Origin: Deltaproteobacteria bacterium
Lineage (GTDB): Bacteria > Myxococcota_A > Polyangia > Fen-1088
Assembly: GCA_033763315.1 (NCBI GenBank)
Contig: JANRKS010000032.1
Span: forward strand, 544,001 to 608,000
Direction: 5' to 3'
Length of the DNA stretch: 64,000 nt
Position numbers and translations under genes: made by a program. Under the pieces are notes generated by a model. It was not told the DNA's origin, did not search any database, and worked only from the letters and a program-made list of their open reading frames with translations. This document shows positions 2,171 to 8,029 of the stretch, piece by piece; the stretch's first letter is position 1, and every line of letters starts with the position of its first letter.

Positions 2171-3261
2171 CTGGATTCCGCCGTTTCGCTCTCCGCCGTT
2201 TCTTGCTTCCACAGTTGCAAGAGCGTGAAGAACAAACTCAAAGCCAAGGGCCCGGCCACCAACCCGATCGCACCGAACAACGCCACACCACCCAACAGGG
2301 AGAAAAACACCACCGCTCCGTGCAGCTGCTCTTTGCCCTTGGTCAGCAGTGGCCTCACCACGTTATCCACCACGCCAACCACCAAGGTGGCCCATGCGGC
2401 CAAAAACAAGGCCGAATACAGATGCCCCGTGGCATACAGCAGCAGCGCGAGTGGCAGCGCCACCAGCGCGGTGCCGATGGCAGGGAAGAACGAAGTAAAG
2501 AACGTGAGCAGGCCAAAGAAGAAAGCCTGGGGCACGTGCGCGATGAAATAGCCAATGGTGGCAACCGCGGCTTGCGCCAACGCGGTCAGCAGGTTGCCGC
2601 CAAGGACAACGCGAGCTGATTGACGAAAGCGCACCAGCACTTGCCTCGTTCGATCCGATCGCAGCGGAACGTTGTTGTTAGCCCATCGTCGCAAACCGGG
2701 CCCATCCGCAAACAGGAAGAACATGGCCACGGTCATCAATGCATATTGAGTGACGAAGGCACCGAGCACAGTCAAGCCGCCCATCGCCCGACGCGCCAGC
2801 GAGCCCGACGCCCCCAAAGTTTGCCCGATGTCTTTCGGCAAAGTGACGGTGTAATCAAGCAGCCGTGAAGCGAAGGGCTCAGGCAGCTTCATGAGCAGCT
2901 CTTTGTACTTGCCTTCGTCGATGAAACCGCGCACGACGTAAAGAGCGTCATCCGCTTGCGAAATGGCGATGGCCACCAGCAACGCAATCGGTGCCAGAAT
3001 CAAAACATTGGTGCCCACCGTCATTACCGTTGCCGCCAACCAACGCCGCCCCCGAAACGTGCGAACCAGCTTTTCCTGAATGCCGTTGAGCCCCGCGGTG
3101 ATCACGGCGGCCAGCAACAACGGTTGCCACAGCGGCAGGAGCAATGCGGCGATCAGCGCCCCGCTCGCCATCAGGGCCCAGAAGGTGAAGCGTCGTTCCG
3201 TTGTGGGTGGTGCAACGACCAAGTGTGGCTCCTCCGGATTCACTTTCGTTCGTAGTGGCAC
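2167..3261 (-). CDS. AI-2E family transporter
   Basis: 364-aa polytopic membrane protein with P.IGTALV, VDNVVRP and FFSLLGGVALFGAIGLVAGP motifs. Confidence 0.88.
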   Translation of the reverse strand: MPLRTKVNPEEPHLVVAPPTTERRFTFWALMASGALIAALLLPLWQPLLLAAVITAGLNGIQEKLVRTFRGRRWLAATVMTVGTNVLILAPIALLVAIAISQADDALYVVRGFIDEGKYKELLMKLPEPFASRLLDYTVTLPKDIGQTLGASGSLARRAMGGLTVLGAFVTQYALMTVAMFFLFADGPGLRRWANNNVPLRSDRTRQVLVRFRQSARVVLGGNLLTALAQAAVATIGYFIAHVPQAFFFGLLTFFTSFFPAIGTALVALPLALLLYATGHLYSALFLAAWATLVVGVVDNVVRPLLTKGKEQLHGAVVFFSLLGGVALFGAIGLVAGPLALSLFFTLLQLWKQETAESETAESS

Positions 3262-3275
3262 AGCCCCCCATTATA

Positions 3276-3312
3276 TGCACGGGATGTGCCCGAAGTTGGC
3301 GCAAACAGTGCA
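3276..3312. promoter_or_regulatory. Back-to-back divergent sigma54-type (-24/-12) promoters
   Basis: Minus strand GGGCACATCCCGTGCA (GG 3290-3289, GC 3278-3277). Plus strand TGGCGCAAACAGTGCA (GG 3298-3299, GC 3310-3311). Both have exact GG-N10-GC spacing. Confidence 0.5.
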
Positions 3313-3380
3313 AGGAAACCCAGCAAGGGCACCTGTCGTTTGCGAACCTGCGGCAAAAGGGCCGCGAAACCATACGAAAT

Positions 3381-4532
3381 ATGACCTGGAACCCCAAACT
3401 TTCTTCGGCAACGGCGCGGTTTGAGCACATGGCGCGTGAGGCGGCAAGCGATCCCGACGTCATCACTTTGGGGGCAGGCCTACCGGCAGAGGAAACGCTT
3501 CCGTCGGCCGAGCTTTCACAAGCCTTCGCGCGAGTGATGTCGTCGCCAAAGTTGGCTTCCGAAGCTTTGCAGTATGGGTGGCCCGAAGGCGCCGCGCCTT
3601 TGCGTGAATACATCGCGCACCGGCTCGCTGCACGCGGGGCCACGGTTGAACCCGACGAGGTGATCGTGACCAGCGGTGCCCAACAGGCGTTGGCCTTGAT
3701 CGTGTCCGCTTTGAAACCGCTGTTACCGTCCAGCAAGTTGCAGATCAACGTGGGTGAACGCTCCTATGCCGGTGCACTTGAACTGTTCAGGGCGCACGGT
3801 TTTGCGTGCGTGGTAGAACCCGCGCCCGTTGTCTATGCGATGCCCGCGCTCGCCAACCCAGGCGGCGAAAGAGGGTTGGGCCCTTCCCCTTCACCATCGT
3901 CGCAGCCTGGCACCTGGTTCCTTGAAGACGATGCCTATGCTGATCTCAGCTTTGATGGGCGCACGCCGCGTTCATGGTTGGCGATCAATCGCTGCAGCGT
4001 CTTTCACGTGGGCACGCTTTCGAAAACTGTGTGTCCTGGTCTTCGGGTGGGTTGGGTCGTCCCGCCTCCTGCGCTGGCACGATCGATGTTGCATCTAAAA
4101 CGTGAAGCCGACATTCAAACAGCGGGCTTAGGTCAAAGCACCGCCCTAGCGTTCTTGCAGGCAAACGACTTCGACGAACGCCTCGCGCGTCTGCGCACCT
4201 TTTACGCCACCCGTGCCGACGCTTTGATGTCGGCCCTGCGGACGCATCTGCCATCTTGGCGCTTCGTTGAACCAGAAGGAGGCTTTTCGCTGTGGGCCGA
4301 GCCGGATGTGCCCCTACAAGAAGCAGGCTTTGTGGCCGCGTGTTTGGAAGCCGGCGTGAGCCTCGACCCCGGTTCGGCTTGTCGTCCTGTTTCGCCCGGC
4401 CAGGAGCACACGATCGCGCCGGGGCTGCGCTTATGTTTTTCCAGCCAAAGTGAACGACGGTTACAAGCAGGCACGCGACGCTTGGCTCGCGCCTACGCAC
4501 GCTTGGCCGCCTCCGTCGTCAAGCCTGCTTAA
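3381..4532 (+). CDS. PLP-dependent aminotransferase (MocR/LysN-like, no HTH domain)
   Basis: LGAGLP, ALQYG..EG...LRE, VIVTSGAQQAL, EDDAY, PLP-lysine motif TLSKTVCPGLRVGW, PEGGF. Start moved to ATG 3381. Confidence 0.85.
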   Translation: MTWNPKLSSATARFEHMAREAASDPDVITLGAGLPAEETLPSAELSQAFARVMSSPKLASEALQYGWPEGAAPLREYIAHRLAARGATVEPDEVIVTSGAQQALALIVSALKPLLPSSKLQINVGERSYAGALELFRAHGFACVVEPAPVVYAMPALANPGGERGLGPSPSPSSQPGTWFLEDDAYADLSFDGRTPRSWLAINRCSVFHVGTLSKTVCPGLRVGWVVPPPALARSMLHLKREADIQTAGLGQSTALAFLQANDFDERLARLRTFYATRADALMSALRTHLPSWRFVEPEGGFSLWAEPDVPLQEAGFVAACLEAGVSLDPGSACRPVSPGQEHTIAPGLRLCFSSQSERRLQAGTRRLARAYARLAASVVKPA

Positions 4533-5053
4533 GGCGCGGCCACAATGGCCACGTTGCCCGCTTCGTTCCACCGGTGTGCGAACTCATCGAAGCGTTGCAC
4601 CACGTAGCCACGCTGCGGATCGATCAACATCAGTTTCGATGCCACGGGCGACGTGCCCACAACCACAACGAAGTGACCATAGCGCCGCTGGTTCTCGTCC
4701 ATCGCCACGCCAACGATCACAGGGCGTCCCTTGGCCGTTTCGTTCTGCAGATCGCCGATGGATCCGGCGATAACAAACGCGAGCAACCCTGACGCTTCCA
4801 ACGCTTGTTTGATTTGCCCCGCGCGCACGCCATTGTCGCCGGTTTTCATGGCGACGGGCACGGGTTTATCCCAATGGGCCACCACCATTTGCGCCGCCGC
4901 CAGGCCGCACGCGCGGCGGTCCGTTTGAATCACGGGCGTGATGTGTGGCACCACGTTCCACGCGTCTTGCGTGGCCAGTGTTGGTGGTTGGTTCACAACC
5001 GCGGGAGCGCAAGCGCCCAAACCCAACACCACGCCCAGCAGCCAGAACTTCAC
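4529..5053 (-). CDS. Stand-alone peptidase C39-like cysteine protease, lipoprotein
   Basis: Lipobox LGAC. Q...CG (IQTDRRACGLAA), G.PVIV, GHFVVVVG and IDP give the Gln/Cys/His/Asp set. No ABC domain. GTG start overlaps the upstream TGA. Confidence 0.85.
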   Translation of the reverse strand: MKFWLLGVVLGLGACAPAVVNQPPTLATQDAWNVVPHITPVIQTDRRACGLAAAQMVVAHWDKPVPVAMKTGDNGVRAGQIKQALEASGLLAFVIAGSIGDLQNETAKGRPVIVGVAMDENQRRYGHFVVVVGTSPVASKLMLIDPQRGYVVQRFDEFAHRWNEAGNVAIVAAP

Positions 5054-5364
5054 AGCACCACGATCAAGATCACCAACAACAACACGATGGCCGCGGTGGA
5101 GCCGCCAATGTAGAGCCCGGCGCCGCCGCCCTCAAAGTTCTTTTGGGTCGTCGCCATCTGTTCGCGCCCTTGATAAGTTTGCACGAACGCCGCACGGTCT
5201 TGGCTGCTGTTGGCTAACTCAGCATTCCCCGCTGGGCTGGGCGGCGTTGGTTGAACGGCCACGCCTGCTGTCTCCGTGGGCGAGCCCCACGCGGGCATGC
5301 CTTGCACACACAACCACAGTCCACCCAAACCGATCGCTGTTTTCATCCATGTACTGGCTGTCAT
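5050..5364 (-). CDS. Small exported protein with a double-glycine motif and hydrophobic C-terminal tail (putative C39 substrate)
   Basis: RBS GAGGA. Signal peptide ending AWG, P/A-rich linker, then ...QKNFEGG-GAGLYIGGSTAAIVLLLVILIVVL at the C-terminus. Confidence 0.75.
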   Translation of the reverse strand: MTASTWMKTAIGLGGLWLCVQGMPAWGSPTETAGVAVQPTPPSPAGNAELANSSQDRAAFVQTYQGREQMATTQKNFEGGGAGLYIGGSTAAIVLLLVILIVVL

Positions 5365-5402
5365 TTGTCCGTCCTCGTACTGGCTGTCATTTGTCCGTCC
5401 TC
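5351..5402. repeat. Exact 26-bp tandem duplication spanning an RBS and start codon
   Basis: GTACTGGCTGTCATTTGTCCGTCCTC occurs at 5351-5376 and 5377-5402. The minus strand reads GAGGACGGACAAATGACAGCCAGTAC. Confidence 0.97.
5361..5390 (-). CDS. 9-aa mini-ORF MTASTRTDK created by the duplication
   Basis: Has its own RBS (GAGGA) and ATG at 5390. Its TGA (5363-5361) overlaps the ATG at 5364 (ATGA). Translation is inferred. Confidence 0.45.
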   Translation of the reverse strand: MTASTRTDK

Positions 5403-5403
5403 G

Positions 5404-5688
5404 TTAGGCCGCCGCACTTAGCTCGGACCATTGCGGCCCTTGCAACACTGCAGGTTTTTCAGGGCGATGGCTGCCAATGCACTTCGCCAATGTCTTCGAG
5501 TCCCATGCTGCATCGATCGCCGTCACAGGCACGGTTGTGCGTGCGCCGTTGGCATCGAACACAGCCACACTTGCCACCCCTTTCGCCGAAGCGACGCGTT
5601 TTGCAGCCGCCACGGTGAACCACATAGGCACGGTCACCATGGCTGGTGCCGCGGCCTTCCCCTCAATCCTGTATGCCCCCGTCTTCAT
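5404..5688 (-). CDS. Small hypothetical protein with a degenerate single CBS-like segment
   Basis: TVPMWFTVAAAKRVASAKGVASVAVFD resembles the CBS pattern V.P..TV..A..+M....+..LPV+D. Stop lies directly before the duplicated RBS. Confidence 0.5.
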   Translation of the reverse strand: MKTGAYRIEGKAAAPAMVTVPMWFTVAAAKRVASAKGVASVAVFDANGARTTVPVTAIDAAWDSKTLAKCIGSHRPEKPAVLQGPQWSELSAAA

Positions 5689-5703
5689 CTTGCCGAACAG
5701 CAA

Positions 5704-5719
5704 TACAAAAAGCGTGCCG
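5704..5719 (-). promoter_or_regulatory. sigma54-type promoter candidate for the CBS-like/precursor/C39 operon
   Basis: CGGCACGCTTTTTGTA: consensus -24 GGCACG with a variant -12 (TTGT), 17 nt before ATG 5688. Confidence 0.5.
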
Positions 5720-5785
5720 CAACAAAAGGCGACCCAGCACTGGTATAAAGGGCGTGCGTTGCCAGGCTTTCCTCGCTCACGTTTC

Positions 5786-5977
5786 GTGCTTTGGATTATG
5801 GTTTCTGTGGCGGTTGCTGCCGCCGCGTGGGCTGTCTATCGCCTGCGTTGCGACGGCCGCCCGCCGCTAAACAATGGAAACTGCCCCGATCCCAGCGAAG
5901 AAGCGGACCCGTCAAGCCTCAAACAAGGCTCCATTCCCGGCAACCGTGACGGTACGCCGGGGCAACAGATCCGCTAA
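5786..5977 (+). CDS. Possible small membrane-anchored hypothetical protein
   Basis: N-terminal hydrophobic stretch VLWIMVSVAVAAAAWAVYR, then a polar tail. Fills the gap up to the mtnA stop. Start uncertain. Confidence 0.3.
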   Translation: MLWIMVSVAVAAAAWAVYRLRCDGRPPLNNGNCPDPSEEADPSSLKQGSIPGNRDGTPGQQIR

Positions 5978-7011
5978 GCCCTGTGCACCCACAGAGCGGC
6001 CATGGATTGCCGCGAAGGGCGTTCAACCGCGCACGTCTCTGTAACCAGCACATCGACGAGTTCCGCAGGTGTAACGTCGAACGAAGGATTGAAGGCTGCC
6101 GAACCCGCGGGAGCGATGGCCGTGCCTGCAAACATCGTTACCTCTTGCGGGGGACGCTGCTCGATGGGGATCTGTTCGCCGTCACTGAGCGCCCCATCGA
6201 TGGTGGAAGTCGGCGCCACCACCATGAACTTGACCCCATGATGGCGGGCCAAGATCGCCAAGGGATATGTGCCCACTTTGTTCGCCACATCGCCGTTGGC
6301 AGCCACGCGATCCGCGCCAACGATCACCCATTGCACTTGGCCCTGGCGAAACAACGTGGCCGCGGCGCTTTCGGTGCTCACGCAGAAGGGGATGCCTTCT
6401 TGCTGCAACTCCCAAGCGGTCAAACGCGTGCCTTGCATCCACGGACGTGTTTCACCCACGAAGGCTTGCTGCAGGTGACCTCGCCGAAACGCTTCACGTA
6501 CCACCGCCAAAGACGTGCCTTCACCGCCTGTGGCCAGGGCGCCGGCGTTGCAATGCGTGTAGACGTTTGAGCCGGCCGTGATGAAAGCGGCGCCCCGCTG
6601 GCCCATCGCCGCGCATGCCGCGCGATCTTCGGCTGCGATCGCGTGCGCTTCGGCCAAGAGCCTTGCCACCAAGCTTGTCTCAACGTCGCGGTGATCATGA
6701 GCTTGCCAAACACGCCGCATGCGCCGCAAAGCCCAAAACAGATTCACCGCCGTGGGTCGCGAGGCTGCCAAGATCTCCACATCAGCGTTGATGGCTGCGG
6801 CGTTGCTGCCGTGCTGTTGCGCCGCCAACACCACCGCATACGCCGCCGTGATTCCGATGGCAGGCGCGCCACGCACCACCATATCTTTGATGGCGGTGGC
6901 CACGCCCTTCGCATCGACAAAATCGAGGTAGCAAACGTTGTGGGGCAACAAACGTTGATCCAGCAGGCGCAAGCGCTCGCCGGACCACAACACAGGCGAG
7001 GGCGTCTTCAT
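5974..7011 (-). CDS. mtnA: S-methyl-5-thioribose-1-phosphate isomerase
   Basis: LLDQRLLP, MVVRGAPAIG, RPTAVNLFWAL, THCNAGALAT, ETRP..QG.RLTAWEL, GADRVAANGDVANKVGTY, NPSFDVTP. ATG 7011 overlaps the upstream TGA. Confidence 0.95.
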   Translation of the reverse strand: MKTPSPVLWSGERLRLLDQRLLPHNVCYLDFVDAKGVATAIKDMVVRGAPAIGITAAYAVVLAAQQHGSNAAAINADVEILAASRPTAVNLFWALRRMRRVWQAHDHRDVETSLVARLLAEAHAIAAEDRAACAAMGQRGAAFITAGSNVYTHCNAGALATGGEGTSLAVVREAFRRGHLQQAFVGETRPWMQGTRLTAWELQQEGIPFCVSTESAAATLFRQGQVQWVIVGADRVAANGDVANKVGTYPLAILARHHGVKFMVVAPTSTIDGALSDGEQIPIEQRPPQEVTMFAGTAIAPAGSAAFNPSFDVTPAELVDVLVTETCAVERPSRQSMAALWVHRA

Positions 7012-7454
7012 AACGGGTCGTAGGTGGTGAAGATAAAGTCTTGAGCTGCGGCTTTGGCGTGGCAATCCATGCATTTGCTCTGGGGGACGGGCACGCGCTC
7101 GTGGCCTTCGTTGTCGAAGTTGCGCGTGTACTCATCCCAGCGCCATCGGCCTTCTTGTTTGCGTGCCGTTGCCACCAACCACGTGTAAGCCACGCCAGGC
7201 CGGCGCGATTCCTTCACGATGATCGTACCGTCAGGAAAGGGCCTCGTGTTGGCCAACAGCACCGGCAAATCAACGTTGCAGGCGAAGACGTTCTTGATGC
7301 CCTTGTGGGGATCGCCCTCATACGGAGGGATCGGGTCTTTGTTCAAACGCACGCACGTGGGCGCCGTTTGATAACCTTCGATGTCAGCGGGCAGCGTTTC
7401 TCCGCAGGCCGCCACGAGGGCCAGCGCCAGGGCCAAACCGATTCGCCAGAACAT
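7008..7454 (-). CDS. Cytochrome P460/c'-beta-like monoheme lipoprotein
   Basis: Lipobox VAAC, FPDGTIIVKE motif, C-terminal heme motif CMDCH followed by DFIFT. Confidence 0.75.
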   Translation of the reverse strand: MFWRIGLALALALVAACGETLPADIEGYQTAPTCVRLNKDPIPPYEGDPHKGIKNVFACNVDLPVLLANTRPFPDGTIIVKESRRPGVAYTWLVATARKQEGRWRWDEYTRNFDNEGHERVPVPQSKCMDCHAKAAAQDFIFTTYDPL

Positions 7455-7504
7455 TGGGCGCAGTGTAGCCCGAAGGTGTGCGTATCAGGGTATTATCTGT
7501 GTCG

Positions 7505-8029
7505 ATGTTTGGCCTACGCCTGATGACATTTGTCCACGCTTCGTTGGCGTTTGCGGCCCCGGTGCAGGTCGCCGCCAGCGTTGAGGGGATGCCGCGGCCC
7601 ACGGTGGGGTTTGGGCTTGGCCCCGCGGTGTTGTTGAAGTCGCAGTCGCACGCGGTTTCGCATTTGATCAAACCTTTGGCCTCGCTGTACGTGCGCTGGC
7701 CTTGGCGTGAGCGTTTTGAATTTGGCGCGCAGGCGGTGGCACTTGCCGATGACAACCAGCACTACCGGGTGCTGGGGGCCTTGGGGCAAGCGCGTTGGCA
7801 GGCTTGGGCGCGCGGCGTGTTTTCCACTGGTTTTGCCGCAGGGCTCGGTGCTGGCCACGATGCCGACATTCTGCACGCCAACCTGCAGGGGGGCGGGATC
7901 TCCGTTTACGGCACCGCCGGCGTGGATGCCCGCTGGAATGTGGGCTCGCGCTGGGCGGTGGCGGCTGAGGTCGACACCCTCAACCTTGCCACCGTGCGCC
8001 TGGCGGCGTGCTTGTCCGTCCGGTTCTAA
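7505..8029 (+). CDS. Putative small outer-membrane beta-barrel protein
   Basis: Signal-like N-terminus (AFA), alternating amphipathic strands, C-terminal Phe (LSVRF). Confidence 0.6.
   Translation: MFGLRLMTFVHASLAFAAPVQVAASVEGMPRPTVGFGLGPAVLLKSQSHAVSHLIKPLASLYVRWPWRERFEFGAQAVALADDNQHYRVLGALGQARWQAWARGVFSTGFAAGLGAGHDADILHANLQGGGISVYGTAGVDARWNVGSRWAVAAEVDTLNLATVRLAACLSVRF

Follow-up and report, generated by a model that had tools for sequence, protein, structure and literature searches.

Double-glycine peptidases of family C39 are textbook cytoplasmic enzymes that are fused to the exporters of bacteriocins and pheromones, and the classical double-glycine leader presents hydrophobic residues at positions -4 and -7 before a Gly-Gly pair on a helix. 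Here we analyse a stretch of 64,000 nucleotides (the window) from a Deltaproteobacteria bacterium (assembly GCA_033763315.1, contig JANRKS010000032.1, positions 544,001 to 608,000 of the forward strand), in which a gene for a small precursor protein is followed by one for a standalone lipoprotein-type C39 peptidase. The two genes constitute a conserved module, which probably processes a peptide outside the cytoplasm. Double-glycine chemistry appears here to have been moved to the periplasmic membrane surface, together with a dedicated Sec-exported, membrane-tailed substrate.

The peptidase domains of ComA, LahT and PCAT1 (PCAT/AMS domains) resemble this system in their fold, in the Gln/Cys/His/Asp set and in substrates that combine an amphipathic helix with hydrophobic residues at -4 and -7 and with Gly-Gly. 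They differ from it in that they are cytoplasmic and fused to ABC exporters and act on leaders lacking a Sec signal, whereas here the enzyme is a standalone lipoprotein and the putative substrate is Sec-exported and membrane-tailed. Unlike double-glycine leader peptides, the precursor in the window has a signal-like segment about 50 amino acids before the motif, and there is no conserved transporter nearby. A precedent for a C39 enzyme acting in the periplasm is FapD of the Pseudomonas Fap amyloid system. According to a passage of PMC5557850, which also paraphrases the double-glycine leader consensus, FapD has a Sec signal and is periplasmic, mutation of its Cys abolishes function, and its substrate is unclear. 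FapD differs, however, in being part of a six-gene fap operon with an outer-membrane channel, whereas the pair described here has no conserved neighbours and an adjacent, dedicated substrate candidate.

The nearest annotated relative is the PA2778/PA2779 pair (NF033920/NF033919), in which the gene for a lipoprotein-type standalone C39 peptidase likewise directly follows that for a small exported protein ending in x-G-G/A-G and a transmembrane helix. Within the literature searched we found no functional study of this pair; PA2779 is called hypothetical in a passage of PMC3985676, and PMC10155442, tabulating genes from a P. stutzeri screen for strong constitutive promoters, includes one for a "PA2779 family protein". 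Nor did that literature, searched for PA2778/PA2779, for C39 lipoproteins and for periplasmic or Myxococc C39 peptidases, contain a description of the present module. The original prediction, made from the DNA letters, had pointed to a loose likeness to PA2778/PA2779, and this stands for the layout and the peptidase but not for homology of the precursor to PA2779. The best NCBIfam match of the peptidase is indeed the PA2778 family (E 4.8e-8), yet the score is 32.7 bits where 150 are required, and the match aligns residues 87-173 with positions 59-145 of the 255-position profile, that is, with the C39 half only and without the TPR half. For the precursor there is no match to PA2779 at E<=1 (cut-off 40 bits), and one of 58 family members matches at E 0.023. 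Comparison of the family alignment (A3) with A6 by hhalign gives a probability of 11%, hence no detectable precursor homology. In the window's genome, NF033919 has sub-threshold matches elsewhere only (18.6 bits). Moreover, the precursor lacks both the helical N-terminal domain of about 60 amino acids and the conserved cytoplasmic tail after the transmembrane helix that characterise PA2779, and it carries Phe at -4 where PA2779 has A-P-A-G-G.

Bona fide PA2778/PA2779 pairs occur at four Betaproteobacteria loci (L067, L069, L079, L095), where the peptidases contain TPR repeats and score 289-330 bits and their partners 115-134 bits. Five Acidobacteriota loci (L062, L063, L074, L093, L120) are intermediate, with C39-only lipoprotein-type peptidases at 46-62 bits for PA2778 and partners at 26-40 bits, no higher than the PA2779 cut-off of 40. 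The Acidobacteriota partner is about 135 amino acids long and ends in ELAxLAxRAxKAxxxFxAG, N-x-x-L and a transmembrane helix. Bit scores against a hidden Markov model (HMM) of the family to which the window's peptidase belongs descend from 148-273 for its own members through 78-94 for the Acidobacteriota type and 58-70 for the PA2778 type to 32-47 for ABC-fused C39 domains. In a quick tree each of these four groups forms one side of a branch (support 89, 99, 99 and 100), the support for the deep order being 47. Since no precursor homology is detectable and the N-terminal domain and post-transmembrane tail are absent, the module does not belong to the PA2778/PA2779 families but is a minimal, divergent relative of their kind. 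Modules of this kind have so far been known from annotation alone, and the present one adds a variant to them.

A conserved precursor-peptidase pair

Three consecutive open reading frames (ORFs) lie on the minus strand at 5404-5703, 5050-5364 and 4529-5053, the second encoding the precursor and the third the peptidase. The coupling of these two had been described correctly: the stop codon of the precursor and the GTG start of the peptidase overlap in GTGA. Close homologues are rare, five for each of the two proteins, but the family as a whole is large. A precursor profile (A1) run against 1.84 billion representative proteins matched 508 clusters (50% identity level) at E<=1e-3, of which 61 also pass E<=1e-10, and the best 150 of the 508 matches are 58-167 amino acids long. 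Neither the window's precursor nor any of the 58 sequences taken by hand from this search for alignment A3 matches a Pfam or NCBIfam family. A PDB sequence search with the precursor profile gave nothing (best E 0.77), PADLOC matched none of the three proteins encoded by the upstream ORF, the precursor gene and the peptidase gene, and the structural neighbours of the precursor in the Atlas are all "hypothetical protein, Myxococcota" and all below the bar for naming.

Among 89 genomes of the window's order the peptidase profile finds a gene in 74, covering 17 of 19 genera, and the precursor profile finds one in 73. Both genes are present in 73 genomes and neither in 15; the single genome with a peptidase only (G063) is 76% complete and holds the sole strong peptidase match that lacks a precursor directly upstream. 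Across the order, 98 of 124 precursor genes have the peptidase directly downstream on the same strand, and 98 of 104 peptidase matches have a precursor partner; of the remaining six, four are weak (E above 1e-9). In 20 loci of 15 kb picked from the 98 pairs, mostly on long contigs, the precursor lies directly upstream of the peptidase in every case, often with an overlap of 1-4 bases and otherwise a few bases apart, and no other gene is shared among them. The statement that no modifying enzyme, exporter or immunity gene is nearby thus holds beyond the window, none being conserved in these loci. A scan of species-representative genomes with the peptidase alignment A5 returned 80 loci, of which 22 are of the module type, 20 of these with a precursor beside the peptidase. 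The titles of the module-bearing records name Myxococcales, Polyangia, Kofleriaceae, and delta-proteobacterium or proteobacterium metagenome-assembled genomes, and two are labelled Planctomycetota. No relative among genome contigs was found when the scan was based on the close peptidase alignment, A2. In an even sample of the window's phylum, the precursor was found in at least 5 of 300 other genomes, a lower bound given that 16 candidates were scored per genome. The recurrence of the motif and adjacency in 98 pairs from 73 genomes, and in 508 clusters, is far beyond chance. At one locus labelled Planctomycetota (L055; peptidase match at 3001-3510, precursor frame ending at 3869) the order is reversed, the precursor lying downstream.

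The expectation that the precursor would always stand next to a lipoprotein C39 peptidase was borne out in part: it holds for 98 pairs and, from the side of the enzyme, for all strong peptidase matches but one, while 26 of 124 precursors are unlinked. All 26 are extra copies in genomes that also carry a pair. At the ten of these loci that were inspected (L129, L130, L134, L136, L137, L143, L148, L150, L152 and L153) the motif is intact throughout, and there is neither a peptidase match nor a conserved neighbour within 1.5 kb on either side. Such unlinked copies resemble, by analogy, the extra precursor genes of peptide-maturation systems. The number of precursor copies per genome in the order is 1-4, all of one family.

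The precursor itself begins with a hydrophobic N-terminus ending in PAWG before a Ser, continues with a Pro/Ala/Thr-rich stretch and then reads ...FVQTYQGREQMATTQKNFEGG, GAGLYIGGSTAAIVLLLVILIVVL and stop. Its end, ...YQGREQMATTQKNFEGG followed by GAGLYIGGSTAAIVLLLVILIVVL and the stop codon, had been read exactly in the original prediction. The layout common to the family is a signal peptide, a linker of Ala, Pro, Thr and Ser, a helix with the pattern Y-A-x-R-E...L..F-x-G-G and an uncharged tail of about 24 amino acids. For motif counts, 153 sequences were aligned by an aromatic-x-G-[G/A...] site that had to lie 20-34 residues before the C-terminus and that all 153 possess; the anchor itself fixes F/W/Y at -4 and G at -2. 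Outside the anchor, Tyr at -17 occurs in 139 of the 153, Ala at -16 in 130, Arg at -14 in 140, Glu at -13 in 130, Leu at -7 in 80 and Gly at -1 in 143. Together with a tail of exactly 24 amino acids in 101 members (24 +/- 1 in 149, range 22-28) these counts confirm the conserved Y..RE......F.GG and hydrophobic tail that had been predicted. After Gly-Gly come three positions rich in Gly, Ala and Ser, then [IV]-Y-I-G-G-S-[TA], and Leu, Ile and Val to the end. The tail is uncharged in 144 members, and 5 end in Lys, Arg or His. The precursor thus shows the double-glycine leader pattern, with G-G at -2/-1 and hydrophobic residues at -4 and -7 on a helix.

Conservation is unevenly spread along the protein. 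Among six close sequences, the window copy and its five homologues, the last 28 residues are almost invariant and the tail entirely so, whereas the front halves are 39-68% identical to the window copy. By a heuristic delimitation, the linkers of the family have a median length of 38 amino acids (25-76) and consist of 25.6% Ala, 12.4% Pro, 10.1% Thr and 9.9% Ser. In a contig about 90% related to the locus (run X4) all three genes are present, but positions 5209-5285, the linker, are replaced by 81 unrelated letters. An AlphaFold2 (AF2) model of the precursor from the 58-row alignment predicts a helix at 3-21, coil at 22-52, a helix at 53-75 (predicted local distance difference test, pLDDT, up to 91), coil at 76-82 over N-F-E-G-G-G-A, and a further helix at 83-103. 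In one precursor located at the end of the frame 5650-7821 (L029), F-E-A-G stands in place of F-x-G-G and the head of the tail is shorter; the second Gly is therefore not absolute. Precursor subtypes track the peptidase clades, a form with L-A-T-R-E-Q-Q...D-F-R-G-G-G going with the clade of L025, L031 and L038, and one with D-Y-A-A-R-E-A-A-A-P-E-L-G-K-F-Q-G-G-S with that of L024, L027 and L032. Tracking of this kind would be expected of linked genes and would also fit matched specificity.

The peptidase is a member of the C39 family by profile, catalytic set and papain-like fold. It passes the cut-offs of Pfam PF03412 (41.6 bits, cut-off 22) and of PF13529, Peptidase_C39_2 (33.6 bits, cut-off 24), and it matches TIGR03796 and TIGR01193 in their peptidase part only, far below the cut-offs. 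Its N-terminus, MKFWLLGVVLGLGAC, is a lipoprotein-type signal with the lipobox Cys15. This Cys is invariant in 18 of 18 family members, as are Trp32, Gln43, Cys49, His127, Asp145-Pro146 and Trp162, so that the catalytic set, with Gln43 as the oxyanion Gln and Asp145 beside Cys49 and His127, is intact. The protein of 174 amino acids ends just after the C39 domain, at 4529, with no ABC transporter part; close homologues have 119-176 amino acids. Lipobox, catalytic residues and the lack of an ABC domain are as the original prediction had listed them. The AF2 model of the enzyme has a pLDDT of 90.3, and its top Foldseek matches are ComA (3k8u; E 7e-8, template-modelling score 0.82 by target), LahT150 with its leader (6mpz) and PCAT1. 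A PDB profile search leads to the same proteins, PCAT1 (6.7e-12), ComA and LahT. Further fold matches are the staphopain-staphostatin complex 9l5u, the phytochelatin synthase Alr0975 and the leader complex 6v9z. Cleavage by the peptidase would, on the model of these enzymes, take place after Gly-Gly.

A complex of peptidase residues 16-174 and precursor residues 56-104, each with its own alignment, was predicted alongside three controls. The interface score ipSAE was 0.76, 0.75 and 0.76 in three runs and 0.00 in the best control, and the mark applied to such models is reached by 116 of 157 solved complexes and by 2 of 215 mismatched pairs. Between the runs at least 97% of contacts coincide, and the partner pLDDT is at least 73. 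On the peptidase the interface comprises residues 46-50 with Cys49, 73-79, 91-97, 122-128 with His127, and 165-174; on the precursor it comprises 56-57, 60-61, 64-65, 67-68 and 70-71, and then 73-86 unbroken, that is, one face of the helix followed by an extended F-E-G-G-G-A-G-L-Y-I. The model, in which the controls were passed, thus agrees with the predicted position of the precursor on the active-site face and supports a substrate-like binding of the helix and FEGG there. It bears on binding rather than on cleavage, and its contact ranges do not assign either of the two Gly-Gly pairs to Cys49.

The putative product of the module

Linkage, co-occurrence, motif conservation, the intact catalytic set, the fold and the controlled complex model are computed results. 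From them we infer a scheme of Sec export, lipidation, inner-membrane retention, scissile bond and mature fragment. The precursor would be exported by Sec and its signal peptide cut after PAWG. The hydrophobic stretch at the extreme C-terminus would stop transfer and remain in the inner membrane, leaving the N-terminus outside. The peptidase, exported as well and lipid-modified at Cys15, would be kept on the periplasmic side of the membrane by a tether some 17 residues long, dock onto the amphipathic helix Y-A-x-R-E...L..F and cut after Gly-Gly, here after Gly80. This would yield a soluble fragment of about 53 amino acids, in which linker and helix serve as leader, and an uncharged transmembrane peptide of 24 amino acids starting G-A-G-L-Y-I-G-G-S-T. 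The membrane peptide would be the mature product, and the function of signal peptide and leader would be to insert this charge-free peptide in a fixed orientation. We favour the tail as product because its length and its G-x-G-I-Y-I-G-G-S head are constant while the linker varies and the conservation of the helix is explained by recognition. All in all we hold it rather probable that the pair is a dedicated substrate-peptidase module with a membrane peptide as its product.

Several points weigh against this interpretation. The signal peptide of the window copy is weak by a strict hydrophobicity heuristic, which scores a signal-like N-terminus in 121 of 153 members and fails the window copy together with several truncated entries. 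The second conserved Gly-Gly, Y-I-G-G at +7/+8, also has a hydrophobic residue four positions before it and is an alternative cut site. The 26 precursor genes of 124 that do not adjoin a peptidase mean that pairing is not strict. The membrane in which the enzyme resides is the weakest link: if it were an outer-membrane lipoprotein, a tether of 17 residues would be too short for a site at the surface of the inner membrane, and position +2 of the lipobox, Ala in the window, is occupied by Tyr, His or Gly in relatives. The score of the complex may in part reflect likeness to the solved C39-leader complexes 6mpz and 6v9z. Finally, support for the family and for its nearest annotated relatives is computational throughout, and no result points to a role for a 24-amino-acid membrane peptide.

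But which part of the precursor, if any, would the cell be after? The same cut may be made and the released N-terminal fragment, linker plus helix, be the functional part, for instance as a periplasmic or secreted peptide, with the tail a mere anchor until cut. Controlled release from an anchor in the membrane is a widespread principle, the topology would free the fragment into the periplasm, and the conservation of the YAxRE helix equals that of the tail. Recognition by the enzyme already explains the conservation of the helix, however, and the linker varies freely (25-76 amino acids of low complexity) and is replaced outright in the 90% relative, whereas the tail is held within one residue of 24 in nearly all members and its G-x-G-I-Y-I-G-G-S is conserved beyond the needs of an anchor. 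We therefore consider this explanation unlikely. Distinctly unlikely, in our view, is that the small protein is no substrate at all but a membrane-anchored partner, inhibitor or immunity-like factor sitting in the active-site groove of an enzyme whose real targets lie elsewhere. The complex model does give binding and not cleavage, a papain-like protease-inhibitor pair (staphopain-staphostatin, 9l5u) is among the fold matches, and a passage of 10.1101/733030 lists PA2778 as a possible toxin beside small genes under selection in a screen of P. aeruginosa by transposon-directed insertion-site sequencing. Yet the partner bears the full double-glycine substrate signature, with hydrophobic residues at -4 and -7 and G-G, and would therefore be cut; the unlinked extra precursors fit substrates better than stoichiometric inhibitors, and the window's genome has no other candidate substrate with the motif.

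LPXTG/sortase, PEP-CTERM/exosortase and GlyGly-CTERM/rhombosortase systems all combine a short motif, a C-terminal transmembrane helix and an enzyme at the membrane surface, and a motif followed by a transmembrane helix at the extreme C-terminus of the precursor resembles these signals. FxGG and the tail might accordingly be a C-terminal sorting signal: an amine would resolve the thioester, and Gly80 would link the N-terminal part to peptidoglycan or a lipid. Cysteine peptidases do pass through acyl-enzymes, and the fold matches include phytochelatin synthase Alr0975, a transpeptidase with a papain fold. We regard such sorting as highly unlikely. To our knowledge, C39 enzymes are not known as transpeptidases, and they are unrelated to the enzyme families of those systems. 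The module further differs from them in lacking a basic cluster after the helix, as the uncharged tails and the few that end in a basic residue show, and in having a single small, low-complexity type of passenger, as seen in the lengths of the best 150 matches, with 1-4 copies per genome, all of the same family. Since a tail profile matches this gene only among 90,752 frames of the window's genome, the tail is not a general sorting signal. As regards a classical class II bacteriocin or microcin-type precursor with exporter and immunity genes elsewhere, the double-glycine motif, the Gly-rich hydrophobic core and the C39 enzyme would all be in keeping with it, but we find it scarcely credible: the precursor has a signal peptide of its own and the enzyme is a lipoprotein, so that processing would be extracytoplasmic; no ABC exporter is fused to the peptidase or conserved in the 20 loci; and the core, a full-length uncharged transmembrane helix, would stay in the membrane of its producer.

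If the 24-amino-acid tail is the product, as we favour, the module would represent a novel route by which very small membrane peptides are produced and given their orientation. More tentatively, and with somewhat less than even confidence, we suggest that it exemplifies a Sec-dependent, transporter-independent double-glycine maturation, that the charge-free transmembrane peptide is a small membrane-integral effector or regulator, and that the same logic applies to PA2778/PA2779 and to the Acidobacteriota intermediates. This large family lacks a Pfam or NCBIfam model and is present in most genomes of one order of uncultured bacteria, with relatives labelled Myxococcales or Polyangia. Its substrate signature is the clearest among the relatives and thus offers a tractable entry to the function of PA2778/PA2779 and to what periplasmic C39 enzymes such as FapD cut. 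The original prediction is supported as far as computation goes, its interest being solid rather than extreme until cleavage and a phenotype are shown.

Coordinates and flanking sequences

Features of the locus. Positions are those of the window; signal-peptide, lipoprotein and transmembrane features were read from the sequence and from AF2 helices.
Feature	Position	Strand	Basis
C39 (double-glycine type) lipoprotein cysteine peptidase, 174 amino acids	4529..5053	-	Pfam, residue conservation, AF2, fold matches
Lipobox Cys15	5009-5011	-	read from sequence
Catalytic Cys49	4907-4909	-	conserved with Gln43, His127, Asp145
Precursor gene, 104 amino acids	5050..5364	-	ORF; 5 close homologues; 508 clusters
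Presumed Sec signal peptide, amino acids 1-27, ending PAWG before Ser	5284..5364	-	AF2 helix 3-21; PAW[GA] site common to close homologues; inferred
Variable low-complexity linker, amino acids 28-52	5209..5283	-	AF2 coil, pLDDT 62-69
Recognition helix and double-glycine site, amino acids 53-80 (Y64 Q G R67 E68 ... F77 E G79 G80)	5125..5208	-	AF2, conservation, complex-model contacts
C-terminal tail of 24 amino acids, GAGLYIGGSTAAIVLLLVILIVVL, presumed membrane-embedded product or anchor	5053..5124	-	AF2 helix 83-103; family conservation
Small conserved ORF, 94 amino acids from Met6 (5688) or 99 from TTG (5703)	5404..5688	-	homologues start at Met6
Perfect 26-bp tandem duplication, 2.1 copies	5351..5404	.	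doubles precursor ribosome-binding site and ATG

The small ORF upstream of the precursor had been taken as CBS-like and as part of the operon. This could not be upheld: it has no CBS match, its sole Pfam match at E<=1 is HSP70 (E 0.099), and nothing was found for it at cut-off level in Pfam, in NCBIfam or in PADLOC. With four homologues at 69-80% identity it is nevertheless a real gene. Two of these homologues are on contigs equal in size (8701 and 33149) to contigs with precursor homologues, and in none of the 20 wider loci does the ORF stand beside the pair. It is a lineage-specific gene that occurs in the closest relatives only, outside the wider module. Its protein is cytoplasmic-looking, without a signal peptide, and has an invariant core, VTVPMWFTVAAAKRVA; an Atlas search gave a best score of 0.79, which is a lead only. 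With the tandem duplication discounted, the ORF lies 13 nucleotides 5' of the precursor gene.

The duplicated unit contains a GAGGA ribosome-binding site and an ATG, and its first copy opens a mini-ORF of nine codons whose TGA overlaps the true ATG of the precursor. Because a 174-nucleotide contig that is otherwise identical (run X1) and the 90% relative (run X4) both carry a single copy, the duplication is a strain-level variant or an assembly artefact. The sequencing runs listed as containing this sequence include no RNA run; the four DNA runs carry small shares of it, and among them there was no full-length contig identical to the locus. At its other end the pair abuts a convergent aminotransferase gene (3201-4532, plus strand), whose stop codon overlaps the end of the peptidase gene (4529-4532) within TTAA.

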